Assembly (NCBI GenBank): GCA_965261595.1
Contig: CBDHDG010000006.1
Location: 1,672,799 to 1,736,798 of the forward strand
Reading direction: 5' to 3'
Source of the DNA: a bacterium
GTDB taxonomy: Bacteria; UBA8248; JACPRG01; G963555815
DNA: 64,000 nt
Below are positions 18,396 through 38,009 of the stretch, in pieces (position 1 is the first letter of the stretch; the number at the start of each line of letters is the position of its first letter). The position numbers were made by a program, and so were the translations under genes. The notes under the pieces are model-generated. The model worked only from the letters and a program-made list of their open reading frames with translations, was not told the DNA's origin and searched no databases.

Positions 18396-18889
18396 AACGG
18401 ATGTGGCCCCAGAGGTCCGGGTCGGGTGAAGCGACCTGCATGCCCAGGGCGAGACAACCGCCGATGAGAAGGCAAACGAGGAAAAAGGAATTCAGGTCAA
18501 CGCGGTCGAACCGGGATATCCACTTTGCGGCGGCGGGGGGGGGGCGCGAAGAACGAGATGAATCAGACGGGCTCACGGGCGCGCGTGCCTTTCGAAGATA
18601 TCTCAACGGGGGCGGGCGCGACGTGCGCGGAACCCTCTCGGACCGCCGAGGGGCCGCCGCGGACTTCGATTCCTTCAGCGAAAATAACGATTGGGCGTCG
18701 GAGAAGGGCCGCGGGGCGAGGCGATGTCCGAAATCCCCGGAAACCCGGGAGCGCGGCAAGAATTCACCGTGTTCCTTACCGTTCCGTTCGGGATTCATAC
18801 TCCCGATGTCGGCGGTTGTCCCTGAGGATGTGAAGAATCAAGGCAATCGGAATTATGCCCTTGACAAAGTAGGCCACAAGGTCTATATT

Positions 18890-19060
18890 CTAGGGTATGG
18901 CTGATTCATCGTTCACTTCAGCGTCTTTCGACCTTTCGCCCACAATCTTGTCTACTTCCTTCATAACCCGTTTTCCGAATATCTTCTCCATAAAATCATG
19001 GCCCGAAAGTTCGAGGTCTTCCTTTTTCAGTTCGTCTTTCTCTTTGGGGGATTGACCCAT
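18890..19060 (-). CDS. small hypothetical protein inside the IS, divergent from the transposase
   Basis: 57-aa charged ORF (MGQSPKEKDELKKEDLEL...) abutting the transposase start. Weak support only. Confidence 0.2.
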   Translation of the reverse strand: MGQSPKEKDELKKEDLELSGHDFMEKIFGKRVMKEVDKIVGERSKDAEVNDESAIP

Positions 19061-19949
19061 GGACATGAACCTCGTTTCCTTGATGGACCGCTTCAACTGC
19101 GATAAAAAGTGCCGAAAGGCCCTGGAGCATATCCGGTGGCCCAATGGTGTCGCCTGCACCCGTTGCGGCGATATGGACGTTCTTCCTCTTCCCAAACACT
19201 GCCGATGGGAATGTAAGTCATGCGGCTACCAGTTCAGCGTCATGTCGGGGACCATCATGCACGATTCTCATCTTGCCCTTCGCAAGTGGTTCCTGGCGAT
19301 CTACCTGATGTGCGAGTCGAAGAAGGGGATTTCCGCCCTTCAGATGAAGAGAACGCTTGGGACAACCTACCGGACGGCCTGGCACCTGTGCCACCGAATC
19401 CGCGAGGCGATGGGCAATGATCCGTTTGAGGGGCCTACGCTTCTCGGAGTGGTAGAGGTCGATGAAACGCTTGTGGGAGGCAAGAAGAAGGGCAAGGGCC
19501 GTGCCTACAAGGGCAACAAGGTTTGGGTCGCAGGAGCCATCCAGCGAGGCGGCAAGGTCCGGGTCGAGCGTATCTCCGACGTGAAACGTCACACGCTCCA
19601 TGGATTCATTAGCCGCGCCGTTCGGGACGAAGCCGAGGCCATCTATACGGACGAATTGAAGTCCTACCTGGGAATTGCCGACAACAATACGCGCCATGAG
19701 ACGGTCAACCATTCAGCCGAACAATGGGTCATTGGCGAAGTTCACACCAACAGTATAGAAGGTGTTTGGAGCCTATTCAAGCGTTCCCTGATGGGTGCGT
19801 TCCACAAGATGAGCGCGAAGCACATGGACCGCTACCTCGAAGAGCTTGAATGGCGGTTCAACAACCGGAACAACCCGAATCTATTCCAAGATACCCTTGC
19901 CCGCATTATGGACACTAAGAATCTGACTTATCGGGAGTTGGTGGCTTAA
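19059..19949 (+). CDS. IS1595 family transposase (zinc-ribbon plus DDE domain)
   Basis: N-terminal CxxC...CxxC zinc ribbon (CTRCG...CKSCGY) and a DDE_Tnp_IS1595-like core (ISXO2-like), 296 aa. Confidence 0.9.
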   Translation: MDMNLVSLMDRFNCDKKCRKALEHIRWPNGVACTRCGDMDVLPLPKHCRWECKSCGYQFSVMSGTIMHDSHLALRKWFLAIYLMCESKKGISALQMKRTLGTTYRTAWHLCHRIREAMGNDPFEGPTLLGVVEVDETLVGGKKKGKGRAYKGNKVWVAGAIQRGGKVRVERISDVKRHTLHGFISRAVRDEAEAIYTDELKSYLGIADNNTRHETVNHSAEQWVIGEVHTNSIEGVWSLFKRSLMGAFHKMSAKHMDRYLEELEWRFNNRNNPNLFQDTLARIMDTKNLTYRELVA

Positions 19950-20020
19950 GTCTTCCACGGTTTCCCTCGTCATTAACAGACTCTGGTGGAAGTTGTATAT
20001 GCAAGAGGAATAATGGAACA

Positions 20021-20614
20021 TCACCAATTTTCTCTGCATACCTGCGCAAGGCCTTTATAGACACTTGTTGATTGTCTCCGGGGATCTTTTCCTGAACTCC
20101 TGCAAAAGTCTCCAGAAACCCTGGAATCCCCCCCCCAATTACTTGACAAATCTTTGACGATAATGGCATCCTTGAGCTGGCTTAACATAACCTTGATCCT
20201 TGGATCTTTTGTTGCCTGATGAGGATCTATGGAAAACCACAAACAAGCCGCCTGAGACAATGATAGATTTTTGTGTTTTTGGTATAATGAAACATCTACC
20301 TCTATGGGTTCTTCACCTGGAGCTACAGTATCTGTGTGGATGCACTCATCGATCTTCTTGTCTAAACGTTCCACCTCGAGACGAAAAGGCGCCATTAACA
20401 AGTTCCATAGGAATGTTGGAACGATAGCCACCAATATGAATATGATAGCGATCACAATATTATCCGTCATTTCTGAACTAGCCTTTTCTTCTTCTCCGAT
20501 ATAGCTGAGTAGCAAAATAAATATCGCAGGAACGAGAACCAACACAAGGACGGTTCCAAATGACAACCCAAAACTCTTCCACGTGTCAATACACGCTTTC
20601 TTAAAGATTTCCAT
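20021..20614 (-). CDS. passenger gene: hypothetical 2-TM membrane protein (about 38% GC)
   Basis: 197-aa ORF inside the IS between the transposase and the right IR. Two TM helices then a soluble domain. AT-rich codon usage foreign to the host. Confidence 0.5.
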   Translation of the reverse strand: MEIFKKACIDTWKSFGLSFGTVLVLVLVPAIFILLLSYIGEEEKASSEMTDNIVIAIIFILVAIVPTFLWNLLMAPFRLEVERLDKKIDECIHTDTVAPGEEPIEVDVSLYQKHKNLSLSQAACLWFSIDPHQATKDPRIKVMLSQLKDAIIVKDLSSNWGGDSRVSGDFCRSSGKDPRRQSTSVYKGLAQVCRENW

Positions 20615-21144
20615 GCAACAAAACTACACATGGGATCGGGCTTTGTCAAGGGCATAATTCCGAAGGCAATGGTCACCGCCAACAGCCAAAAGACCACCGT
20701 AGCTAATCCCACGTTTCATCCTCCATGATCAGGATATTCGGTTCAAGTCCGGAGCTTACGACGCTTGGTTTCCACGGCCGGGGTTCGATCCGGACCCCGG
20801 CGACGTTTCTCAGAGATCCTCTTCCCGCGCAACGACGCCCGAGGTCATGTTCCCGCTGATCATCTTATCAGGACTTTCGTTCTCACCGAGAGACAAGGGG
20901 GGATGGGCCGCTTCTCGACCGATCCTGGAACTCCTGACTTCCCAACTCACCGGATGATCAACAACGACATTCCTATATATTTGGAAGCCGCCCTGGCGCA
21001 AGTGATCTCTGGGAGTAGTCGAATATTAATGAATAACCAACCGGCTCGGTCGTGGGGACCATGGAGGGGGGCGCGTCGTTCTCGATCCTGTTTGCGAGAG
21101 GGCGGAAATCGTCCCCGGCGGAAGGCGTCAGCCGCCGGTCGTCT

Positions 21145-23463: not shown

Positions 23464-24143
23464 TTTCCATTCCCAGGATTCGGGCAAAGCCGAACCCGCC
23501 GATGCCCTCGTATTGCCGTTAGGCGCTTGCCCCACTTCTCAAGGGCCGCATTCCGCCGCGCCATTCAGATTATCACGGTTCAGGTTGCGCGGCGGGATAT
23601 AGAGGTTGTGAATCGATCACGCGGGAACACCCGGGTCCGTCGCTGTCTATGGCGGCCGTTGGCGGTGTCAAGCCGGATCATTCCGCCAGCATGGACTGGA
23701 TATTTCCGGCCGCTCGGCGGGATCGACCCTTCAAGAAATCCGGTGGTTCAATCATTGTTCGGACAATATGGATTTGTTCTAAGTAGAACCCCCGTGGCAC
23801 TATTTGTGCAAGCTTAAAAAGATGGGAACCATACATGCGCTCAATAGCGGTTCACGGTTTTGACCCTCCCGGATAAGTCAGAGGGGGGATGGGTCCGCGT
23901 GAAATCGTATTACCCCGCTACGCTTTGGGGGAGCCGCCCGCCTATCGCCCCGGGTGTTGTCGGAGGGGCGGAGATCCAGGGTCCCGAAGGTCGGGTTGAT
24001 CTTGGGGTTCCGGTGCGCCTCGGCGGCGCATTTCACGGTTTCCGTAAACAGAAACAAATCAAGGGGGGGACGCAAGAAAACGGGCGCCCCCGCCCTTGGG
24101 TTTCGTTGGACACTCGATCGAGTCATCAAGGCAAACCAATCGG

Positions 24144-26324
24144 ATGATCAAGCGACTCCTCATCTGGCTCACCTCCCTGCTTTATGAGCGAACCATCCTC
24201 GTTCTGAGCGTGATGTTCGTTGCCGGCGTGGCGGGCATGATTTGGGATGTTTCCCGTGTGCAGACAAATCTCATCGAAGCGACGGCATTGGAATACGCGA
24301 CCGAGCACACCCACGCTCTGGCGGAATTTCGCACGCTCTATACGTCGGAAGTGGTTGCCCGCGTGAGGCCCTATGGGACCGAGGTGACCCATGACTACAA
24401 ATCAAAGGAAGGAGCCATCCCCCTTCCCGCCACGTTGAGCATGGAGCTCGGCAAAAGAATCGGGAAGCATCGTTCCGGGCTTCAATCCCGGTTGTACAGC
24501 GCCTATCCGTTTCCCTGGCGAAAAGACAAGGGCGGCCTGCGGGATGAATTTGCCAAGGAAGCCTGGAACCATTTGCGCCGGAATCCCGATAAACCTTTTT
24601 ACCGATTCGAGACATTCCAGGGCCGCCGCTCATTGCGATACGCGACGGCGGATTTGATGCGGCCCGCTTGCGTCAACTGTCACAACACGCACCCCGACTC
24701 CCCCAAAAAGGATTGGAAAGCGGGAGACGTAAGAGGGGTTCTGGAAATTGTACGCCCCATGGAGGCCATCGTCGCGCAGACGCGAGAAGGTCTAAGAAAA
24801 ACCTTTGGCCTGATGGTGGTGATGGCCGTGATGGGGCTGTCATGTCTCACCCTCGTGATTGGCAGGCAAAGGCGAACCTCGGCCGACTTGGGGCAGCGGG
24901 CTGAGGAGGTGGAAGCGGCCAACCGAGAGCTGAAAACCGAGATCGCCGAGCGCAAGCGGACCGAGGAGGCTCTCAAACTCACGCAATTCTCCGTCGAGCG
25001 ATCGGTGGACGCGACCTTCTGGATCGCGCCGGACAGCCGGATCCTGAACGTGAACGATGCGACATGCCGTCACTTCGGGTATTCACGGGAAGAGCTTCTC
25101 TCGATGACCATCTCGGACATCAACCTGGCCTACCCGCGGGAGAAATGGACCGAGCATTGGGAAAAAGTGAAGCGAAATGGATCTCTGACTTTCGAATCCA
25201 TCTTAACGACCAAAGACGGCCGGGAGATGCCGGTCGAGATTACCGCCAACTACCTGGAATTCAACGGAAAGGAGTACATTTTCAGCTTTGCCCGCGACAT
25301 CACCGCGCGCAAGGAGGCGGAGGAAGCGTTGCGACTCACGCAATTCTCCGTTGACCGGGCGGGAGACGCCACCAACTGGATCGCGCGGGACGGCAAGATC
25401 CTCTATGTGAACGATGCGGAATGCGACTATCTCGGGTACTCGCGGGAAGAACTGCTCTCCATGACCATTTTCGAAATCGATTCGGAGCAATCGCCGGAGA
25501 AGTGGGCGGCGCATTGGAAAAAAGTGAAAGAAGCGGGTTCGCTTACATTTGAGTCAAGCCAAGTAACCAAAGACGGCGGGAAAATCCCGACCGAGGTGAC
25601 CTCCAGTCACCTGGAGTTCAACGGAAAGGAGTACCTCGTCGGCTTTGTTCGCGACATCACCGAGCGCAAGCGGGCAGAGGAGGCGCTGCGGCTCACGCAG
25701 TTCTGCGTTGAGCGGGCGGGGGACCCCGTTTTTTGGTTCGGCCCGGACGGCCGGTTTCTTTACGTGAATGATGCGGCGTGCCGGTATCTCGGGTACTCAC
25801 GGGAAGAGCTGCTCACGATGGCCGTCTCGGACATCAACCCGCAGCGTACGCCGGAGAAGTGGCCCGAGAGATGGGAAAAGAGGAAAGGGCGCGGACCGCA
25901 GACCTTCGAGACCCGCCACCTCGCCAAGGACGGCCGGACGGTTCCGGTCGAGGTGACCGCCAACTACCTGGAGCTTAACGGAAAGGAGTATATGTTCAGC
26001 TTCGCCCGCGACATCACTGCGCGCAAACAGGCCGAGGAGGCGCTGCGGCTCACGCAGTTCGCGGTGGATCAGGCGGGGGACGCCATTTTCTGGGTGACGC
26101 CGGATGGTGGATACCACTATGTGAATGACGCGGCGTGCTGGTATCTCGGGTACTCCCGGGAAGAGTTGCTCTCCATGTCGGTCTGGGACGTCCAGCCGGA
26201 TCTTTCGGCCGGGCAGTGGCCCGAGAGGTGGGAAGAGCTGAAACGGATCGGCGCTTTATCCGCCGAAACCCGCTACATGACCAAGAAAGGCGGAGTCGTT
26301 CCGGGCGAGGTATCCATCAACTAA
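24144..26324 (+). CDS. N-terminal part of multi-PAS hybrid sensor histidine kinase: 2-TM periplasmic CxxCH sensor domain plus PAS domains 1-4, ending at an in-frame TAA
   Basis: MIKRLLIWLTSLL TM1, extracytoplasmic domain with CVNCH (c-type heme motif, DUF3365-like), TM2, then four LRLTQF...NYLEFNGKEY PAS repeats. TAA at 26322-26324 replaces the conserved Tyr codon TAC. Confidence 0.8.
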   Translation: MIKRLLIWLTSLLYERTILVLSVMFVAGVAGMIWDVSRVQTNLIEATALEYATEHTHALAEFRTLYTSEVVARVRPYGTEVTHDYKSKEGAIPLPATLSMELGKRIGKHRSGLQSRLYSAYPFPWRKDKGGLRDEFAKEAWNHLRRNPDKPFYRFETFQGRRSLRYATADLMRPACVNCHNTHPDSPKKDWKAGDVRGVLEIVRPMEAIVAQTREGLRKTFGLMVVMAVMGLSCLTLVIGRQRRTSADLGQRAEEVEAANRELKTEIAERKRTEEALKLTQFSVERSVDATFWIAPDSRILNVNDATCRHFGYSREELLSMTISDINLAYPREKWTEHWEKVKRNGSLTFESILTTKDGREMPVEITANYLEFNGKEYIFSFARDITARKEAEEALRLTQFSVDRAGDATNWIARDGKILYVNDAECDYLGYSREELLSMTIFEIDSEQSPEKWAAHWKKVKEAGSLTFESSQVTKDGGKIPTEVTSSHLEFNGKEYLVGFVRDITERKRAEEALRLTQFCVERAGDPVFWFGPDGRFLYVNDAACRYLGYSREELLTMAVSDINPQRTPEKWPERWEKRKGRGPQTFETRHLAKDGRTVPVEVTANYLELNGKEYMFSFARDITARKQAEEALRLTQFAVDQAGDAIFWVTPDGGYHYVNDAACWYLGYSREELLSMSVWDVQPDLSAGQWPERWEELKRIGALSAETRYMTKKGGVVPGEVSIN

Positions 26325-26360
26325 CTGGAATTCAACGGCAAAGAATACTCCCTGGGCTTC

Positions 26361-29180
26361 GTGAGGGACATCTCCGAGCGCATGCGCGCGGAAGAGACGC
26401 TACGGCTCACGCAGTTCTCCGTTGACCGGGCCGGGGACGCCACATACTGGATCGGTGCGGACGGCCGAATCCTCTATGCCAACGAAGCGGCGCGCGCGGA
26501 TCTCGGGTACTCAATGGATGAAATGATCTCCATGACGATCATGGACATCAATCCGGACTACTCACCGGACACCTGGGCGGCGCATTGGAAGCGGCTAAAA
26601 GAAAAGGGTTTCTATACCTTTGAAGGGCGCAACGTGACCAAAGACGGCCGCAAATTTCCGGTCGAAGTGACTTCCAACTATTTGGAGTTCAACGGAAAAG
26701 AGTACATTTTCGGCTTCGTCCGCAACATCACCGACCGCAAGGAGGCGGAGGAGACGCTGCGGCTCACGCAATTCTCCGTTGACCGGGCCGGGGACGCCAC
26801 ATACTGGATCGCGGAGGACGGCCGCTTCCTCTATGTGAACGACGCGGCGTGCAAAATGCTCGGATACTCACGGGAAAAGCTGCTCACGATGGCGGTCTGG
26901 GACATCGACGCCAATCGCCGAATGGAACAGTGGATCGATAGACGGGAAGAGCGGAAACGCCATAAATTCTATACGTTAGAAACGGGCCACATGGCCAAGG
27001 ACGGCAGGGTCATCCCCGTTGAGATATCCGCCGACTGTCTCGAGTTCGGCGGCAAAGATTACATATTTGTCTCCGCCCGCGACATCACGGAGCGCAGACG
27101 GATGGCGGACGACTTGCGGAAGGCGAAGGAGGCCGCCGAGGTCGCCAGCCGCGCGAAGAGTGAATTTCTCGCCAACATGAGCCACGAGATCCGGACACCG
27201 ATGAACGGTGTGATCGGCATGTCGGGGCTTCTCCTCGACACCGGTCTCAGCGATAAACAGCGCGAGTACGCCGAGATGATTCGAGACTCGGGTGAGAACC
27301 TGCTTGAGATTGTGAATGACATTCTCGATTTATCGAAGATTGAGGCGGAAAAGCTGACCATCGAGCCGGTCCCGTTCGACCTGCTGTCCGTTGTGGAAGA
27401 GACGACCGAGTTCTTGGCGCCGAAGGCCGATGAAAAGGGCCTGTGTCTCATTGCCCGCTACGCCCCGGATCTCCCCCGTCACTTCATCGGTGACCCCGGA
27501 CGAATTCGACAGATTCTCATTAATTTCATGGGCAACACCATCAAGTTCACGAACGAGGGGCACGTTCTGCTCGGCATCGAGGCGGACGCTGGGCGCGAGG
27601 GAAAATCAGGTCTTCGGATCTCCGTGGCGGATACCGGCATCGGCATCCGCGAAGACGCGATCGAGCGGATCTTCGAAAAATTCACACAGGCCGACGCTCC
27701 AGCCTCCCACGCGCATGGCGGAACGGGCCTCGGGCTTTCGATCTGCAAACAGCTCATCGAGTTGATGGGAGGGACCATCGGGGTGAACAGCAGGCCCGGC
27801 GCAGGATCGACCTTTTGGGTCACCCTCCATCTTCCCCTCGCCTCCGCCGCCTCGCCTCCGCCCCCGCCGGAGCTGGCGGGTGCTCGCATCCTGATCGCGG
27901 CCGGAAATGAGCTCAAGAGGCAAATCCTGTACGAGCAAGTGAGGCATTGGGGAATGCGCGCGGACCGCGTCACTTCCATCGAGGAGACGCTGACCGCGGT
28001 TCATGACGCCCAAGAGGGCGTCGACCCATATCAGGCGGCCATTTTCACCGGCCAAAAAGACGGCGTGGACGCCGAGGCATTGGCCCGTGTCGTCCAATCC
28101 GACCCCAATCTGCGTAAGGTCCCCGCGGTCATCATCGCCCCCTTGGGGCAGCGGGTGGATGCGGATCGAATGGCGAAAGCCGGAATCGCCGCATGCCTGA
28201 GCGAGCCTGTGCGGCAATCCGATCTGATGAACGCCCTGGCGGCGTTGCGCCGCTCGGCAGAGACGGGGCCCCTTCCGGAAAGGGTGACTCGGTTTGCCCC
28301 GGCCGATTCCCACTCTGAAAGGCCTGCCCGGGACCGACAGGACGGTCGGGTTCTCTCTCGCGTTTTGGTGGCTGAAGACAATGCCGTGAACCAAAAGGTG
28401 GCGAAGGGGATGCTGGAGAATCTGGGCTTTCGTGTGGACGTGGTGTCCAATGGCAAGGAGGCCCTCGAGATGTCCGCACTGCTCCCCTACGACGTAATTT
28501 TCATGGATTGCCGTATGCCTGAGATGGACGGATACGAGGCGACGGCATTGATCCGCCGGAGGGAGCGGGAGGGTGGTTCTCGCGTCCCGATCATCGCCCT
28601 GACGGCCCACGCCATGCAGGGTGAGCGGGAGAGGTGTCTGGCGGCGGGCATGGACGACTATGTCACCAAGCCGGTGAAGGTTGATGAGCTGAAGACTGTC
28701 CTGGCGCGCTGGATCGGAGACGTGGGAACGACGGACGCCCCGGCTCCCGCCAGGGTGGAGGGGGCCCGCGAAGTGACCCTCGACCTCGAGGCGCTCCGAG
28801 AATTGGTCTCTGTCGCGGCGGCATCGGGTTCCGGCTTCGTGGAGGAAGCGGTGGCCACTTATTTATCGCAGACGCCCGTTCAAATTTCGGCCGTCCGAGC
28901 GGCTATAGCGCACAAGAACGCGCAAGACCTCAGCCGGGAGGCCCACAGCCTCAAGAGCCGCAGCGCAATCTTGGGCGCGCGAAACATGAGGGCATTGAGC
29001 GCTGAGCTGGAAGGGCGCGCGGAGGCGGACTCGCTGGAGGGGGCGGGAATGCTCCTCCGGAGATTGGAGGAGGAGTTTGACCGCGTGAAATCAGCGCTCG
29101 AGTCCGGGCTGTGGAAGGGCGAAGGGGTAAGCGTTTTGACAGCGGCCGGCCCGCTTGTTGTTTCTGAGAAGCCCGAATGA
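26361..29180 (+). CDS. C-terminal part of the same hybrid histidine kinase: PAS 5-6, HisKA, HATPase_c, receiver, HPt
   Basis: Same frame as 24144-26324. Motifs SHEIRTPMNGVIG (H-box), GTGLGLSICK (G2), receiver DVIFMDCRMPEMDGYEA, HPt SREAHSLKSRSAILGA. First in-frame ATG after the stop is 26361. Confidence 0.8.
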   Translation: MRDISERMRAEETLRLTQFSVDRAGDATYWIGADGRILYANEAARADLGYSMDEMISMTIMDINPDYSPDTWAAHWKRLKEKGFYTFEGRNVTKDGRKFPVEVTSNYLEFNGKEYIFGFVRNITDRKEAEETLRLTQFSVDRAGDATYWIAEDGRFLYVNDAACKMLGYSREKLLTMAVWDIDANRRMEQWIDRREERKRHKFYTLETGHMAKDGRVIPVEISADCLEFGGKDYIFVSARDITERRRMADDLRKAKEAAEVASRAKSEFLANMSHEIRTPMNGVIGMSGLLLDTGLSDKQREYAEMIRDSGENLLEIVNDILDLSKIEAEKLTIEPVPFDLLSVVEETTEFLAPKADEKGLCLIARYAPDLPRHFIGDPGRIRQILINFMGNTIKFTNEGHVLLGIEADAGREGKSGLRISVADTGIGIREDAIERIFEKFTQADAPASHAHGGTGLGLSICKQLIELMGGTIGVNSRPGAGSTFWVTLHLPLASAASPPPPPELAGARILIAAGNELKRQILYEQVRHWGMRADRVTSIEETLTAVHDAQEGVDPYQAAIFTGQKDGVDAEALARVVQSDPNLRKVPAVIIAPLGQRVDADRMAKAGIAACLSEPVRQSDLMNALAALRRSAETGPLPERVTRFAPADSHSERPARDRQDGRVLSRVLVAEDNAVNQKVAKGMLENLGFRVDVVSNGKEALEMSALLPYDVIFMDCRMPEMDGYEATALIRRREREGGSRVPIIALTAHAMQGERERCLAAGMDDYVTKPVKVDELKTVLARWIGDVGTTDAPAPARVEGAREVTLDLEALRELVSVAAASGSGFVEEAVATYLSQTPVQISAVRAAIAHKNAQDLSREAHSLKSRSAILGARNMRALSAELEGRAEADSLEGAGMLLRRLEEEFDRVKSALESGLWKGEGVSVLTAAGPLVVSEKPE

Positions 29181-29230
29181 AACTCTGGAATTCCACCAAG
29201 TGTTTTTACCATGAGAAAGGACCACCCGAG

Positions 29231-30316
29231 ATGAGTGGAAAGATCCGCGTTTTGATCGTTGAGGATTCAGCTTTGGAGCGTTTCCTCCTCTGTGAGATTC
29301 TCTCCCAAGAGCCCGACATCGAGGTGGTCGATGTCGCGCCGGACGCCGATCGCGCCCGAAATAAAATGCGAATTCATAAGCCCGACGTTCTGACGCTGGA
29401 CGTGAAGATGCCGGGCGAGGACGGCATTGCCTTCCTCACCGGGCTTATGTCCACGGACCCTCTTCCGGTCATCATGGTCAGCGCGTTCACCCTGGCGGGA
29501 GCGAAGACCACGCTGTCCGCCCTCGAGAAAGGCGCGGTGGATTTCGTCGCGAAACCCGATGGCAGCAAAGATGAAGATCTTGAAGTGTTCCGGCGGGAGC
29601 TCATCCGGAAAGTGCGCGCCGCCGCCACGGCCCGTATGGGGCGGCATCCCCGGCCGGTCCCGACCCACGCGCCGGCGGAGCTGCCGGAAACACCGGGATT
29701 CATCGTTGCGATTGGAACCTCGATGGGAGGTCCGGAAGCGTTGAGGAGTCTTCTTCCGAGACTTCCGGCCAATTTTCCGGCGATTCTGCTCGTCCAGCAT
29801 ATGCCGGAGTACTTCACCCAGGCCATGGCCGAGAGCCTGGATAAGATCTGCGCCATCCACGTGAAGGAGGCGGAACAGGGCAAACCCGTCCTACCGGGTC
29901 AGGCGCTCATTGCTCCGGGAAATTGCCACATGGAGTTGCGGCGCCTGGGAACCCGCTATTATGTGGAGATTCACAAAAACCCCCGGGTGCGCGGGTTCCG
30001 GCCTTCTGTGGATGTGTTGTTCGAGTCTGTGGCCCAATACGCGGATTTGGACACCATAGGGGTCATCCTGACGGGGATGGGCTCGGATGGGGCGAAGGGC
30101 ATCTCCCGGACGAAGGCCGCCGGCGCGTACACCATTGCCCAGGACGAGGCAAGCTCTGTCATCTTCGGCATGCCCAAACAGGCCATCGCGACGGGGGCCG
30201 TCGATATCGTGCTTCCTCTCGAGGGAATCCCCGGCCATCTCATTAAAGCGATGCAAAGGGCAGGGGCGCCCTTGAAGAAGCCGGCCGGATCGCCGTTGGT
30301 CGCAGCGAGAACCTAG
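29231..30316 (+). CDS. cheB: protein-glutamate methylesterase CheB (REC plus methylesterase)
   Basis: REC domain (IRVLIVEDSALER...LTLDVKMPGEDG) and CheB catalytic domain (IVAIGTSMGGPEAL, HMPE..., GMGSDG). ATG at 29231. Confidence 0.85.
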   Translation: MSGKIRVLIVEDSALERFLLCEILSQEPDIEVVDVAPDADRARNKMRIHKPDVLTLDVKMPGEDGIAFLTGLMSTDPLPVIMVSAFTLAGAKTTLSALEKGAVDFVAKPDGSKDEDLEVFRRELIRKVRAAATARMGRHPRPVPTHAPAELPETPGFIVAIGTSMGGPEALRSLLPRLPANFPAILLVQHMPEYFTQAMAESLDKICAIHVKEAEQGKPVLPGQALIAPGNCHMELRRLGTRYYVEIHKNPRVRGFRPSVDVLFESVAQYADLDTIGVILTGMGSDGAKGISRTKAAGAYTIAQDEASSVIFGMPKQAIATGAVDIVLPLEGIPGHLIKAMQRAGAPLKKPAGSPLVAART

Positions 30317-30702
30317 TGCTTATTTGCGAAAATTAGCATCTTCTCAAAGGCGGCAAATTGCCAATAAAATTCAGTCAAAATTGCCCAAAAATTAATACGC
30401 GAACTTTTGCAACCAAGCACTAGTGTCGCGTCCCGGAAATAAATTCACGATTTCCGAACCTCCTCAAAGTAGGGCGCCACCGGCGGTTTGCCCGCCAGCG
30501 CCTCATTTTTCGGGAAATCCAAAGGGCATCCTGTCACCTGATATTTATTGAAAGGATTTCTGAGACGCGACACTAGGCCAAGTCATTCCCCCTTCTTTCG
30601 GACAGGTTGTTGTCCCACACCGAGTTGACAAGATGAAGAAGGCTTGGCTTTTCTCTTTGTGAGAAACGCAGCCTCACCCGCCGTGTCGCTTGGACCCGGC
30701 AC

Positions 30703-30981
30703 GGGCTCCGCGCGCGCGCGGGGGGGGGGCCACCGACGCCAGCACAGAGAGCACTGATCGAGGGGCTCCGCGCGCGCGCGGGGGGGGGGCCTCTAAGCCC
30801 CCCAGCCCGTCTATCATGCGGCCGGCTCCGCGCGCGCGGGGGGGGGACGATCGCGGCCTTTCTTTTCTCAAAGGTTCCAATGGCTCCCCCCGCGCGCGCG
30901 GGGCGCGCGCGCGGGGGGAGCCCTGGCCAAATCTCTATCTCAGGTGACATAATGGGCTCCGCGCGCGCGGGGGGGGGCCTC
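30703..30981. CRISPR. CRISPR-like orphan array: about 5 units of a 26-29 bp GC-only repeat (GGGCTCCGCGCGCGCGCGGGGGGGGGGCC) with about 32-bp unique spacers
   Basis: Repeat copies start at about 30703, 30763, 30823 and 30955, plus a palindromic double unit at 30882-30922. Period about 60 bp. Spacers 31-35 bp with no mutual similarity. AT-rich leader-like region upstream (30317-30480). No cas genes in the window. Confidence 0.4.
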
Positions 30982-34517: not shown

Positions 34518-36054
34518 TCAGACCTGATTATAGCGATGAAGCCGGGGCGCGGTGACGCCGGCCTCCTGTTCCCACCCCCGGCTGTGGCGACGGATTCCCT
34601 CCAGAACCGGCGCGAAGAATTCCAAGTCCTTCCCCAGCCGTTTATATCTCTTCCGCGCCGTCTCGCGGAACCTTCGGCCGGTATCCGCCTCGTTCACCCG
34701 AACGCTCTTTCCCTCCCGCCGGACGACCTCGCCTTGGGTGAGGACCGTGTGGACGTCCCTGGGTCCTTGGCATCTGTGAAGGAGGATCGTCCACGGATCG
34801 AGGTCCGGATGGGAAGCCGGGTCGTCGAAGATCCGTCTTCCGTCGAGGATGACGATGTCGGCGGTCTTGCCTTCCTCCAGGCTGCCCAGGCCGTCGTGCA
34901 TCGCGATCCGGTTGCCTTCCTGAATTCCGCGCGTGAACCATTCCTCGGCCGGGATCGGCTCCCAGTCGATCGAGGGCGGCCGCGCCAGGAACCAGCCGAG
35001 GCGCATTTCGGTCCAGATGTCGTTATCGTCGTTGAAGGCGGAGCCGTCCGTCCCCATGGCGAACCGGACTCCCTCCCTGCGCATCACGGAGACAGGTGCG
35101 ATCCCGCTGACCAATTTAAGGTTCGACGTCGGACAATGGACGATGGCCGTTCCGGTGTCGGCGATCATCCGGATATCCTCTTCCGGGGGCCAAACGAAAT
35201 GGGCGAAGCTGACTTCCGGACCCAGAAAGCCGATTGCCTGGAGGTGAGAAGCAACGCTCTGGCCCAACTGTCTGGGTCCATACATCATCTCATACCGGGA
35301 TTCGGCGACGTGAATCTGGATGCCGGTCCCCGCCTCCGCCGCCTTTTTCTTGATGCGCTTCAGCAGGCCGTCGGATGCCCACTGTACGCCCAAAGGGGTG
35401 AGGAAGATCCGAATCAGGCCGTCCTTGCCGTTGAACTCACCGTAGATCCCGTCGAACACCCGGAAGTATTCATCCAGGTCCGGAGGCGCCAGGAACGCTT
35501 CCGCCCACTTCCGTTGGGCCGCCGGCAGGCCCATGAGGAAAGGCCCGTGGTCTCCATAGACGAAGGGATTCTGATCCCCCATCGAAACACCGAACGACAT
35601 TCGAACTCCGGCGTCCAGGTATGCCTGGATGGCGGCCGGGAGCCCCCACCGGGGCAGGTGCGGAGCTGGTCGGGGGAAAATCCACCACCGTAGTCACACC
35701 GGACCGCTGGAGCTCCAGGGCGGACCAGAGGGTGTACAGGTAGATCTCCTCTTCGGTCATTTCCGCGCGATAGCTCCCGAAGATCAGCGGGAGCCACCTC
35801 TCCAGAGGCAAATCTCTCAGCCCGTCGCGGATGCTGTTCCCCGCGTGATGGTGGGCGCTGACCAGGCCGGGCATGGCCACGTCGCGCTCCAGAGATCCCA
35901 GCGTTTCGTCAAAGGGGCCGCGGGCGGACAACGCGTCGTGGGGGCCGACGGCCTCGACCTTGCCTCCATCCACGATGACCGCGCCTTCGCGGATGACGTC
36001 TTCGCGGTCCCGGAGCGTCAGGACGCGGTTGGCGCGAATCAGGATTCGGCTCAT
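34518..36054 (-). pseudogene. amidohydrolase family protein, paralog 1, frameshifted
   Basis: ORFs 35470..36054 (N-terminal, HHH metal motif) and 34518..35600 (C-terminal) match paralog 2 along their length but are in different frames. Has a 1-bp insertion relative to paralog 2 near 35660-35690 (GGGGGAAAA). Confidence 0.6.
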
Positions 36055-36207
36055 GGGCGTCTCCGAAATCTTGTGAAGGACATCATTCGGAGCAATCGAG
36101 TGCGGTCACTTCCGCCGACCGGCAGGCCGGGCGTTTGGGTCGGTTGACCCCTTGCCCGGCCGCAAGGCTCCTTCCGAGCCGCGGGGATGACTCATTTGGA
36201 GCAGCCA

Positions 36208-37743
36208 TCAGATCTGGTTGTAACGATGAAGCTTCGGGTCCGGCACATCGGTCTCCCGTTCCCAGACCTGGAAATACTTGTGGATGCCTTCGATGATCGG
36301 CTCGAAGAACGGCTTGTCTTTTTTGAGCCGCGCGTGCCGGTCCTCGAGCAGTCCGGCCAGCCTGCGGCCGATGTCCGCCTCGTCCACGAGGACGTTCTTC
36401 CCCTCCCGCCGGACGACCTCGCCCTTGGTCAGGACGGTGTGAACGTCCCTGTGCCCCTGGCACCGGTGGAGGAGGACCGCCCAGGGATCGAGGTCCGGAT
36501 AGGAAACCGGGTCGTCGAAAATACGCCGGCCGTCCAGGATGGTGATGTCCGCGGTCTTGCCTTCCTCCAGGCTGCCCAGGCCGTCGTGCATCGCGATCCG
36601 GTTGCCTTCCTGAATTCCGCGCGTGAACCATTCCTTGGCCGGGATCGGCTCCCAGTCGATCGAGGGCGGCCGCGCCAGGAACCAGCCGAGGCGCATTTCG
36701 GTCCAGATGTCGTTGTCGTCGTTGAAGCTCGAGCCGTCGGTGCCGAAGGCGAACCGGAGGCCCATCTCCCGCATTGTTGCGATCGGGCAGATCCCGCTGG
36801 CCAGCTTGACGTTCTGGGTGGGGTTGTGGGTGATGGCCGTTCCGGTGTCCACGAGAATTTGGATGTCCTCCCGGGTCGGCCAGATGGAGTGGGCGAAGCT
36901 GACCTCCGGGCCGAGGAAGCCGATGTCGTTCAGGTGGCCGATGGTGCTCGTTCCCAGCAGCTTGGGGCCGTACATCATCTGGTAGCGCGACTCGACGACG
37001 TGGATCTGAAGGCCCGTCCCCAGCTCATTCGCTTTCTTCTTGGCGCGCTTCAGCAGGTCGTCCGAGGTCCACTGGACGCCCAGGGGCGTGACGAAGACCC
37101 GGACGGTGTCGTTCTTGCCGTTGAACTCGGCGTGCACGTCATCCACGACCCGAAAGTATTCGTCCAGGTCGGGCGCGCCCATGAAACCTTCCGCCCACTC
37201 CCGCTGGGCCTGGGGCAGCCCGTTGAGGAACTCCGTGTGATCGCCGTATACGAAGGGATTCTGGTCCCGCGTCGATACGCCGAACGAGACCCGGATCCCC
37301 GCGTCGAGGTATGCCTGGATGCAGGGCGGGAACCCCCACCGGGGGAGGTTCATCGAGGGCGCGTGGAAATCCACCACCGTGGTGACGCCGCACCGCTGAA
37401 GCTCCAGAGCGGACCAGAGGCTGCGCAGGTAGGTCTCCTCCTCGGTCATCCCGACGCGATAGCTTCCGAAGATGAGCGGAACCCACATCTCCAAGGGGAC
37501 GTCCGACAGCCCGTCGCGGACGTTGTTTCCCGCGTGATGGTGGGCGCTGACCATTCCGGGAATGACGACGTCGTGGTCGAGGGAGCCCAGCTCTTCGTCG
37601 AAGGGGCCGCGGGAGGACAGGTCGTCGTGGGCGCCGACCGCTTCGATCGCGCCGTCGGCCACGATCACCGCGCCCTTGCGAATGAGATCATCGCCGTCCT
37701 GAAGTGTCAGGACGCGGTCGCCTCGGATGAGGATTCGGCTCAT
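36208..37743 (-). CDS. amidohydrolase family protein (metal-dependent deaminase/chlorohydrolase-like)
   Basis: 511 aa intact. PGMVSAHHHAGN metal-binding motif. About 85% aa identical to the frameshifted upstream paralog. Confidence 0.8.
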   Translation of the reverse strand: MSRILIRGDRVLTLQDGDDLIRKGAVIVADGAIEAVGAHDDLSSRGPFDEELGSLDHDVVIPGMVSAHHHAGNNVRDGLSDVPLEMWVPLIFGSYRVGMTEEETYLRSLWSALELQRCGVTTVVDFHAPSMNLPRWGFPPCIQAYLDAGIRVSFGVSTRDQNPFVYGDHTEFLNGLPQAQREWAEGFMGAPDLDEYFRVVDDVHAEFNGKNDTVRVFVTPLGVQWTSDDLLKRAKKKANELGTGLQIHVVESRYQMMYGPKLLGTSTIGHLNDIGFLGPEVSFAHSIWPTREDIQILVDTGTAITHNPTQNVKLASGICPIATMREMGLRFAFGTDGSSFNDDNDIWTEMRLGWFLARPPSIDWEPIPAKEWFTRGIQEGNRIAMHDGLGSLEEGKTADITILDGRRIFDDPVSYPDLDPWAVLLHRCQGHRDVHTVLTKGEVVRREGKNVLVDEADIGRRLAGLLEDRHARLKKDKPFFEPIIEGIHKYFQVWERETDVPDPKLHRYNQI

Positions 37744-38009
37744 TGGAATCTCCAGTCAGGGAAGGTCGAACGGGATTCGGATCGCATAATTTGACTCATG
37801 AATTCTCCACCATGCCGTTGAAGGGTGTCAAATGGAAGGGGCCGGAGCCTTGGGGTGAGGGGTTGACCCCCTTCTCCCCGATTCACCGGGCCTCGACATC
37901 GCTCTTCCTCCAGGGATACATTCATCCCCCCACTCCCCCCTTGGCCGGGAAGGCTCGGTTGAAAGGGGGCGAGTGAATTTTCCTGACCATGCGAGAGAGG
38001 AGGTCGGAA

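Follow-up and report, generated by a model that had tools for sequence, protein, structure and literature searches.

The question raised by this locus is whether positions 24144 to 29180 of the window, i.e. of the 64,000-nucleotide stretch of bacterial DNA analysed here (contig CBDHDG010000006.1), hold a single intact gene for a heme-containing sensor kinase that was enlarged by a recent burst of PAS domain duplication, as a preliminary description proposed. We consider it likely that the evidence as a whole is best explained by an sCache_heme/six-PAS unorthodox kinase with old repeats, whose gene is inactivated here and belongs to a module that is either decaying or being selectively switched off. 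All features given below lie on the + strand unless stated otherwise. The GuaA protein of the source bacterium shares 78-79% identity with those of MAGs labelled Tectomicrobia or Nitrospinota, and an Rfam search over the whole window found no RNA family.

The architecture of the kinase is real. Pfam profiles recognised PF11845, six PAS domains, HisKA, HATPase_c, Response_reg and Hpt, and the order along the locus is TM, sCache_heme (with a CVNCH motif), TM, six PAS, HisKA, HATPase, a degenerate receiver, REC and HPt, which bears out the proposed HK-REC-HPt output preceded by six PAS domains. To call it unusual is an overstatement: dozens of proteins combining PF11845 and 0-3 PAS domains with HisKA, HATPase, REC and Hpt were retrieved, and histidine kinase and PAS domains are among the most frequent fusion partners of sCache_heme (bioRxiv 10.64898/2026.02.01.703092).

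The input domain (aa 48-205; 24285..24758) is a sCache_heme/Tll0287-like (DUF3365) domain, matching PF11845 over profile positions 8-144 of 144 (61.4 bits, cutoff 24.1; E=1.7e-16). Its c-type heme attachment motif, CVNCH (aa 176-180; 24669..24683), does lie between two hydrophobic segments as first described, namely the predicted TM1 (~aa 17-39; 24192..24260; Kyte-Doolittle 19-mer maximum 2.2, and a helix in the AF2 model) and the predicted TM2 (~aa 221-243; 24804..24872; maximum 2.47). The domain flanked by these two segments is accordingly no more than predicted to be extracytoplasmic, the location that c-type heme maturation requires. The CxxCH motif occurs once, at the same position, in 49 of 49 homologous sensor domains, and C176, C179 and H180 are invariant in our alignment (A1). 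In the AF2 model the motif sits on a helix (residues 174-182) between strands 161-171 and 196-205, i.e. in a single-Cache fold with a short CXXCH helix inserted between beta3 and beta4, as is typical of sCache_heme. Tll0287 (5b82) was recovered by fold comparison alone, and ranked outside the top 50 in Foldseek when the TM helices were left in the model; a phmmer search of the periplasmic domain against PDB sequences gave no significant match. The closest sensor domains in the scan of genome contigs are 51-52% identical and come from Cyanobacteriota, Verrucomicrobiales and Planctomycetota.

According to its recent characterisation, sCache_heme is the first of the Cache domains to carry its cofactor covalently, and a probable NO sensor; the family is marked by covalently bound heme c and by binding NO but not O2, its "cluster 2" comprises sensors without an axial Cys, and members fused to signalling domains behave as NO sensors (bioRxiv 10.64898/2026.02.01.703092). 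The domain of the window has the features of this cluster, being fused to PAS and kinase domains and having no counterpart of the distal Cys ligand of Tll0287: the only cysteines within aa 40-220 are C176 and C179, both within CVNCH. Profile match, fold and motif conservation thus support the earlier reading of a DUF3365-like heme c sensor of redox state or gases, in agreement with the published work. The outer domain belongs to this known heme-binding family and probably senses NO or redox state. By extrapolation from the family, one heme c should be covalently bound at CVNCH, and the ligand should likewise be that of the family; candidate distal heme ligands, invariant or nearly so in A1, are Y66, Y85, H83, M172 and R165.

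The sensor is followed by six tandem PAS units of 357 nt each (24936..27077), starting at 24936, 25293, 25650, 26007, 26364 and 26721. Pfam detected them as PAS_9, PAS and PAS_4 in stretches of four and two, and TRF reported a period of 357 nt (5.5 copies, 71% matches, score 1541), with L[KR]LTQF anchors exactly every 119 aa and no indels, so that the tandem repetition itself is beyond dispute. The preliminary description went further and took the units to be near-identical products of a recent, recombination-prone amplification. In support of such a process, for which a variable copy number would be expected, one may cite the exact, indel-free period, the conserved stretches of 24-40 nt at the starts of the units and the clustering of the six units as one clade, apart from those of the multi-PAS homologues P0003-P0006. 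A 24-mer quoted as an example does occur in exactly two copies, at 25680 and 26037, while the positions given for its two variants were interchanged (the true ones are 26397 and 26754). Alignment of the nucleotide sequences nevertheless shows divergent repeats, the outcome by which the preliminary description itself would stand refuted. Pairs of units share only 64-74% of their nucleotides (26-36% diverged) and 49-65% of their amino acids, and differ at 41-58 of 119 third codon positions. The longest exact run, between units 5 and 6, is 40 nt, and high identity is limited to the first ~100 nt (0.93 in this pair, against 0.58 in the body of the unit). Moreover, PAS6 is 83% identical to a unit of P0002, a related gene, but at most 64% identical to any sister unit. 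Ten haplotypes at 99.0-99.8% identity contain no 357-nt indel: all intact alleles encode 1678 aa and all disrupted ones are colinear. A recent amplification is therefore extremely improbable. Because the units have diverged, PAS6 is nearer to the P0002 unit than to its sisters and the number of units is constant in the ten haplotypes, the amplification is old and stable, and the six units arose long ago as tandem copies, made within the gene, of a single 119-aa unit. Old repeats can evidently look recent when the repeat boundaries are conserved.

The output part contains everything expected of a hybrid, unorthodox kinase. HisKA (27153..27350; Pfam E=2.9e-23) has the H-box SHEIRTP (27180-27200) with His1014, and HATPase_c (27489..27836; E=3e-30) has its G-boxes and an N-box (27525-27548) carrying the window-specific substitution A1132T. 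Next comes a degenerate receiver-like domain (27882..28253), which covers profile positions 1-110 of 111 of Response_reg but scores 16.6 bits, under the cutoff of 30.2; in place of the acidic pair, phospho-acceptor Asp and Lys that are canonical in the homologues P0003, P0021 and P0030, it has AAGNE, FTGQKDG and LSEPV. The canonical REC domain (28362..28703; E=7.6e-32) has its phospho-acceptor Asp in VIFMDCRMP (28494-28520), and HPt (28848..29093; Pfam Hpt E=3e-9) has its histidine, His1601, at 28944-28946, with a second window-specific substitution, G1606R, at His+5.

The product of the locus would be a membrane-bound hybrid ("unorthodox") histidine kinase with an extracytoplasmic sCache_heme input. 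The signal, either the binding of NO or of a comparable small molecule at the heme or a change of the heme's redox state, would be relayed through TM2 and the six cytoplasmic PAS domains to HisKA/HATPase, and the phosphoryl group would pass from His1014 to the REC Asp and on to His1601 of HPt. The putative final acceptor is the CheB-like response regulator encoded directly downstream.

The sensor and the kinase are not joined in one reading frame in the window, contrary to the description of a single gene over this interval. At codon 727 (26322..26324), in the conserved NYLEFNGKEY strand with which PAS4 ends, a premature in-frame TAA stands instead of TAT (Tyr). The resulting 5' ORF (24144..26324; 726 aa), whose product is present exactly in the protein collection as P0122, comprises TM1, sCache_heme, TM2 and PAS1-4, while the 3' ORF (26361..29180; P0121), of 939 aa from GTG 26361 or starting alternatively at ATG 26383, comprises PAS5-6, HisKA, HATPase_c, the degenerate receiver, REC and HPt. 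The change cuts the sensor and PAS1-4 off from PAS5-6 and the kinase, in an allele in which two highly conserved positions beyond the stop are also substituted. Reassignment of the TAA codon was rejected, as five other genes of the window end in TAA.

Could the stop be an artefact of sequencing or assembly, the gene really being intact? The related contigs look like products of long-read metagenomics, judging by names alone (contig_25, ctg470076_29x_l), and consensus errors may occur in such assemblies. However, the change is a T-to-A substitution, not a homopolymer indel, and TAA recurs in L003, an independent assembly from another sample, where it co-segregates with 10 other SNPs defining the haplogroup; L001 and L004 have TAT. 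The window and L003 have 11 SNPs in common against L001/L004, yet are separated from each other by 45 SNPs unique to the window, which shows that the stop was inherited and is not a read error. A basecalling artefact at a methylation motif was also considered and rejected, since the intact allele has TATCTGG here and not CCTGG, hence no Dcm-like site. We regard an artefact as highly improbable. Four conspecific intact alleles of 1678 aa (P0001, P0129, P0131 and P0132) retain Tyr727, and we infer from the interruption that the kinase gene is inactivated in the window by the TAT-to-TAA change; the label that suits it in annotation is pseudogene or split gene rather than intact 1678-aa kinase.

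An interrupted gene may still be a working one, if a 726-aa membrane sensor and a soluble PAS5-6 kinase, produced by reinitiation, cooperated through PAS-PAS contacts. In favour of this, the 3' ORF has no further stop over its considerable length, ATG 26383 coincides exactly with the N-terminal edge of PAS unit 5, and the TAA allele is found in two distinct strains, which are also the only two haplotypes (the window and L003) with an intact cheB. Against this, neither GTG 26361 nor ATG 26383 is preceded by a convincing Shine-Dalgarno sequence (GAGGGA lies 14 nt upstream of ATG 26383), the break deletes the last beta-strand region of PAS4, and four other haplotypes retain the single 1678-aa ORF. 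Moreover, the substitutions in the N-box and beside the HPt histidine are seen in none of ~100-119 homologues: position 1132 is Ala in 114 of 119 and Thr in none, while position 1606 is A, S or G in 93 of 101 and Arg in none. Because L003 has the same stop without A1132T or G1606R, the evidence for decay comes down to a pair of sites in a single allele. Window-specific changes in the kinase are 6N:0S compared with 8N:7S in the flanking genes (leaving out six genes at 12.7-18.4 kb), a difference that is not significant, and two of the six kinase changes, F991L and F1447L, are not clearly derived; relaxed selection on the kinase is suggested at best by these counts. A functional split is very unlikely in our opinion, although reinitiation could yield the 939-aa product with some function kept.

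Inactivation of the kinase has to be considered together with the fate of the next gene. This gene, cheB (29177..30316), encodes a CheB-like response regulator and is intact here; its ATG overlaps the kinase stop codon (ATGA), a second ATG at 29231 being the more conserved start. The product contains REC (E=4e-19) and PF01339 CheB_methylest (positions 1-173 of 174, E=5e-65) domains, with GTSMGG, VQHMP and GMGSDG supplying the Ser, His and Asp motifs. A CheB-like gene also follows related kinases in L090 (the closest relative), L070 and L073. A generally conserved pairing was rejected, as only 2 of the 80 further sCache_heme loci found by scanning genomes have CheB nearby and 78 lack it. The kinase/cheB pair is immediately flanked by genes for a MoCo dehydrogenase and a Band7 protein.

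Each of ten assembled haplotypes has at least one lesion in this pair and none has both genes intact. The lesions are Y727*, W919* (in L004), three insertions of ISs and, in cheB, a frameshift at a poly-C tract of variable length; the insertions include an IS3-family element within PAS3 in L005/L006 and ISs within PAS4 in L002. In the window, 26-57 bp upstream of the kinase ATG, a 32-bp IS-end-like sequence (24087..24118, strand unassigned) matches, at 91% identity (E=7e-5), the terminal inverted repeat of the IS3-family element interrupting the kinase in L005/L006. The poly-C tract (30033..30035) is C3 and in frame in the window, while C5, C7 and C4 occur in other haplotypes or a related species, all out of frame and before the catalytic Asp motif. 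The related haplotypes are apparently long-read metagenome assemblies, judged by contig naming only, and a systematic homopolymer error could in principle explain C5 and other cheB indels, yet seven assemblies agree; C4 is also found on a k127-named contig, apparently from a short-read (megahit-style) assembly. The flanking genes have a constant length wherever they were called (MoCo dehydrogenase 772 aa, Band7 556, DUF309 144, adh_short 272 and amidohydrolase 360). Within the species the pair is apparently knocked out time and again, the window presumably carrying one allele of a two-component module that is in decay or selectively switched off. The haplotype pattern is a natural example of gene loss at the level of a module, in which either the kinase or its CheB-like partner is hit and the neighbours stay intact.

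Recurrent selection to turn the kinase/CheB pair off, and maybe on again, with poly-C as a hypermutable switch, would be an adaptive version of these events. It would account for four tract lengths (C3, C4, C5, C7) at one site over strains and a related species, only C3 being in frame, for at least five independent lesions in the kinase, for the lack of any haplotype with both genes intact beside untouched flanking genes, and for the 97% identity of the window and L090 downstream of the tract, compared with 91% upstream. However, classical phase-variable tracts are longer than 3-7 C, nonsense mutations and inserted ISs do not easily revert, assembly errors may account for some of the indels, and relaxed selection following one first hit explains the same pattern. 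We consider such a contingency mechanism distinctly unlikely. It is similarly unlikely, if slightly less so, that wild populations of the bacterium, which is uncultured, repeatedly switch off the heme-Cache kinase and CheB module through the poly-C tract and through nonsense mutations and ISs preferentially targeting the kinase. If this were true, it would mean that selection, whether fluctuating or directional, on a pathway sensing NO or redox state is directly visible in metagenomes, and, if the tract is hypermutable, the locus would be a candidate contingency locus beyond the usual pathogens.

Compared with known systems, the kinase adds a long six-PAS hybrid-kinase variant of sCache_heme, from a poorly known lineage, to a family whose principle is already established. 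Its sensor domain is 17% identical to Tll0287 (PF11845; 5B82; Deshpande et al. 2026, bioRxiv 10.64898/2026.02.01.703092), which is a stand-alone protein with Cys/His ligation, whereas the domain of the window is fused to PAS and kinase domains. The Geobacter chemoreceptors GSU0582 and GSU0935 (PDB 3B47/3B42), whose sensor domains have been placed in the sCache_heme family (bioRxiv 10.64898/2026.02.01.703092), also have a periplasmic PAS-like/Cache fold, theirs with covalent heme c, but they act through an MCP signalling domain instead of a kinase; the Foldseek match to 3b42 (E=5.6e-3) is much weaker than the structural match to Tll0287.

The C-terminal phosphorelay layout (HisKA-HATPase-REC-HPt) is the same as in the BarA/GacS, TorS and ArcB kinases. 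BarA ranks first among NCBIfam models (469.5 bits, equivalog cutoff 890), followed by TorS (422, cutoff 676.5) and ArcB (374.8, cutoff 838), and because these scores are far under the cutoffs the kinase is not an orthologue of any of the three. Unlike them, it receives its input through a heme-Cache domain, has six PAS domains and bears an additional degenerate receiver after HATPase and before REC, and the partner encoded next to it is CheB-like instead of a DNA-binding regulator. Also related are the metagenomic multi-PAS hybrid kinases P0003-P0006 (1413-1768 aa) and the GAF-PAS paralogue P0002, which have the same kinase/REC/HPt core (43% identity) and 5-8 repeats of the same ~118-119-aa PAS unit (LRLTQFSV...NYxEFxGKEY) but, unlike the kinase of the window, are cytoplasmic and have no sCache_heme. 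Since the units of P0003-P0006 form separate clades, the PAS arrays expanded independently, while P0002 has PAS6 and the core in common with the window kinase and likewise has a CheB-like gene next to it.

The ORF listing and the translation resolve 24144-29180 into two ORFs in the same frame, of 726 aa (24144-26324) and 939 aa (26361-29180). What the preliminary description took for a single gene is thus split in the window by an in-frame premature TAA on the forward strand (26322-26324); when this codon is read through, the product is 1678 aa long. Every domain type for which an HMM search had been proposed was found with Pfam: a Tll0287-like/DUF3365 domain (PF11845; aa 48-205; 61.4 bits, E=1.7e-16), six PAS domains (four ahead of the TAA and two past it), HisKA, HATPase_c, one Response_reg and Hpt. 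Hydrophobic segments (approximately aa 17-39 and 221-243) lie on either side of the Tll0287-like domain, and the motif CVNCH (aa 176-180) holds the sole Cys residues of the extracytoplasmic part. Between HATPase and REC lies a degenerate receiver-like stretch (27882-28253; aligned with Response_reg end to end at a sub-threshold 16.6 bits), which has lost three features that homologues keep, namely an acidic pair, a phospho-acceptor Asp and a Lys. The first of two receivers is also degenerate in P0002, a GAF-PAS paralogue (without the acidic pair and the phospho-acceptor Asp, and with Lys replaced by Glu); the corresponding receiver looks canonical in the multi-PAS hybrid kinases P0003-P0006 and the sensor relatives P0021 and P0030.

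The kinase cluster at 90% identity comprises 14 sequences, and DNA was compared from nine related places, with identities to the window of 99.0-99.8%. At codon 727, L001 and L004 have TAT and the four 1678-aa alleles encode Tyr; the window shares TAA with L003, a haplotype from a different sample and assembly. Because the TAA recurs in L003, because 11 SNPs are common to these two against L001/L004, and because 45 SNPs over about 22 kb are private to the window, the stop is real and inherited, the window and L003 representing two strains of one haplogroup. Reassignment of TAA as a sense codon was ruled out, since five other window genes end in TAA. Past the stop, the window allele has changes at two strongly conserved positions, A1132T in the N-box (Ala in 114 of 119 homologues, Thr in none) and G1606R at His+5 of the HPt domain (A/S/G in 93 of 101, Arg in none). 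These substitutions, at two sites only, would fit relaxed constraint after the stop; an overall nonsynonymous excess in the window kinase allele was not significant.

Other haplotypes carry independent kinase lesions. Codon 919 is changed from TGG to TGA in L004. In L005 and L006 a 1.4-kb IS3-family element is inserted after codon 597, in PAS3, and a second copy lies downstream of cheB together with a rearranged flank; the copies are inverted, on both sides of the segment with the 3' part of the kinase gene and cheB. Compared with L006, L005 (1-16300) has its Band7 side attached in inverted order, a difference that indicates IS-mediated rearrangement within the population. The L002 kinase gene contains an IS3-like element at codons 722-727 and an IS1595-type element further upstream, in PAS4. 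Comparison of L002 (4037-5292) with the window (26308-26323) places the right junction of the IS3-like element within codon 727, the codon changed from TAT to TAA in the window, with 14 bp (26309-26322) absent at this junction. The two lesions at codon 727 reflect either coincidence or a local hotspot.

The adjacent cheB gene (29177-30316; complete REC and CheB methylesterase), whose start overlaps the kinase stop as ATGA, is affected by a poly-C tract (30033-30035). Compared across the window, L001-L006 and L087-L090, the tract is C3 in the window and L003, in frame with the canonical SVAQYADLD...GMGSDG. Seven haplotypes, among them all four whose kinase is intact, have C5, L002 has C7, and L090, from a related species and with a k127 contig name that points to a short-read assembly, has C4. 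Of these lengths only C3 keeps the frame; C4, C5 and C7 shift it ahead of the catalytic Asp motif. The identity between the window and L090 is 97% past the tract and about 91% ahead of it. In each of the ten conspecific haplotypes at least one of kinase and cheB is damaged; by contrast, five flanking genes have the same length in all haplotypes where they were called. L003/L004 have a nitroreductase-family gene as a single ORF of 450 aa, which in L001 (1368-2720) is split in two (237 and 192 aa), and a TonB-like gene was called at 297 aa versus 209 aa in the same comparison; strain-specific disruptions or assembly indels therefore occur beyond the kinase module too.

The preliminary description thus holds in part. 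In the window the kinase gene carries a nonsense mutation, and the two-component module to which it belongs is decaying across the species. In the simplest reading, the pathway would have lost its value, each haplogroup taking one hit and then decaying further. A more interesting alternative to plain decay is that the kinase/cheB 'off' state may be adaptive or switchable.

The six PAS units had been described as near-identical and as a recent, recombination-prone amplification, a view that did not survive closer comparison. TRF reported a period of 357 nt (5.5 copies, 71% matches), and the L[KR]LTQF anchors are spaced by exactly 119 aa five times, with zero indels. The 24-mer noticed earlier does exist (25680 and 26037), as part of the N-terminal cap conserved in every unit, but unit pairs share only 64-74% nt and 49-65% aa identity, no exact match exceeds 40 nt, and differences are most frequent at third codon positions (41-58 of 119 differ), then at first and least at second positions. 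Units 5 and 6 are 93% identical over nt 34-100 versus 58% in the body, a contrast that may be due to constraint or to a short tract of gene conversion. The six units and one P0002 unit make up a clade in a neighbour-joining tree, and those of P0003-P0006 (5-8 each) fall outside it. PAS6 is closer to the P0002 unit (83% identity) than to its sisters (at most 64%). From the tree and these identities, the array arose by internal duplication within the lineage, before the window gene and the P0002 gene diverged, which together with the unit divergence refutes a recent origin. No change in PAS copy number was found in the ten conspecific haplotypes.

The window is chromosomal and contains UvrA, RecG, RelA/SpoT and GuaA; its GuaA shares 78-79% identity with MAG proteins labelled Candidatus Tectomicrobia and Nitrospinota, and at most 65% with any others that are named. 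A 1.8-kb segment (18848-20662) with an IS1595-family transposase (19059-19949; DDE_Tnp_IS1595 and Zn_ribbon_IS1595), where GC drops to 0.57-0.58, is missing from L001, L003 and L004 and is an insertion private to the window strain. Just upstream of the kinase start codon, 32 bp (24087-24118) show 91% identity to the terminal inverted repeat of the IS3-family element of L005/L006; they may be a solo IS end, possibly part of the promoter region. GC-rich GGGCTCCGCGCGCGCG(G)n-type elements (window 30700-30730 and 30953-30980; L005 8600-8630 and 14800-14830) flank the intergenic region that separates cheB from the Band7 gene and varies in length, and beside one of them L005/L006 have their second IS3 copy. 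Two repeats of about 1.4 kb (34671-36064 and 36361-37753; 79.5% mutual identity) fall in the amidohydrolase region, where the 360-aa gene of L001 corresponds to about 34518-35600 and a 511-aa gene lies further right. In L088 (1-1875), which has an intact kinase, a phage-type integrase gene and an AlpA-like gene replace the left flank upstream of the MoCo dehydrogenase gene, suggesting a putative integrated element.

The proposed heme sensor is supported by the Pfam match, CxxCH conservation and the modelled fold. CxxCH occurs once, at the same position, in 49/49 homologous sensor domains among the top matches, and C176, C179 and H180 are invariant in a 23-sequence alignment. The AlphaFold2 model from this alignment has high confidence (pLDDT 89.5); a short helix (174-182) that carries CxxCH separates its last two strands, and Foldseek matches the model to WalK and the Geobacter heme sensor GSU0935. 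This kind of domain is already in the literature: the family was renamed sCache_heme by Deshpande, Xing, Gumerov, Crane and Zhulin (2026 preprint, bioRxiv 10.64898/2026.02.01.703092), with CXXCH kept in 99% of members and histidine-kinase and PAS fusions among the commonest architectures. In that study, one signalling-fused member without the axial Cys bound NO tightly (k_off ~6e-4 per s) and formed no stable O2 complex, and one stand-alone member, predicted to be Cys/His-ligated like Tll0287, behaved like a redox protein. Because the distal Cys is absent from it, the window sensor would, by analogy with the family, be of the NO-sensor type.

In a genome scan of 80 loci, which covered GTDB representatives other than the window's species, a CheB-like gene followed the Planctomycetota sCache_heme kinases L070 and L073, and no such gene followed at the other 78. 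The NCBIfam models nearest to the kinase core are BarA, TorS and ArcB, with scores far under their orthologue cutoffs. For the C-terminal core the closest relative is P0002, in which GAF and PAS inputs stand where the window kinase has the heme sensor, and which is likewise followed by a CheB-like gene. The closest sensor relatives, P0021 and P0030, combine the same sensor and core with one PAS domain or none; downstream of P0030 lies a REC-GGDEF-like gene. Since P0002 shares the core with other inputs, and P0021 and P0030 share sensor and core with few PAS domains, the kinase gene is modular: its sensor is a common one, its PAS expansion is lineage-specific and its phosphorelay core is shared.
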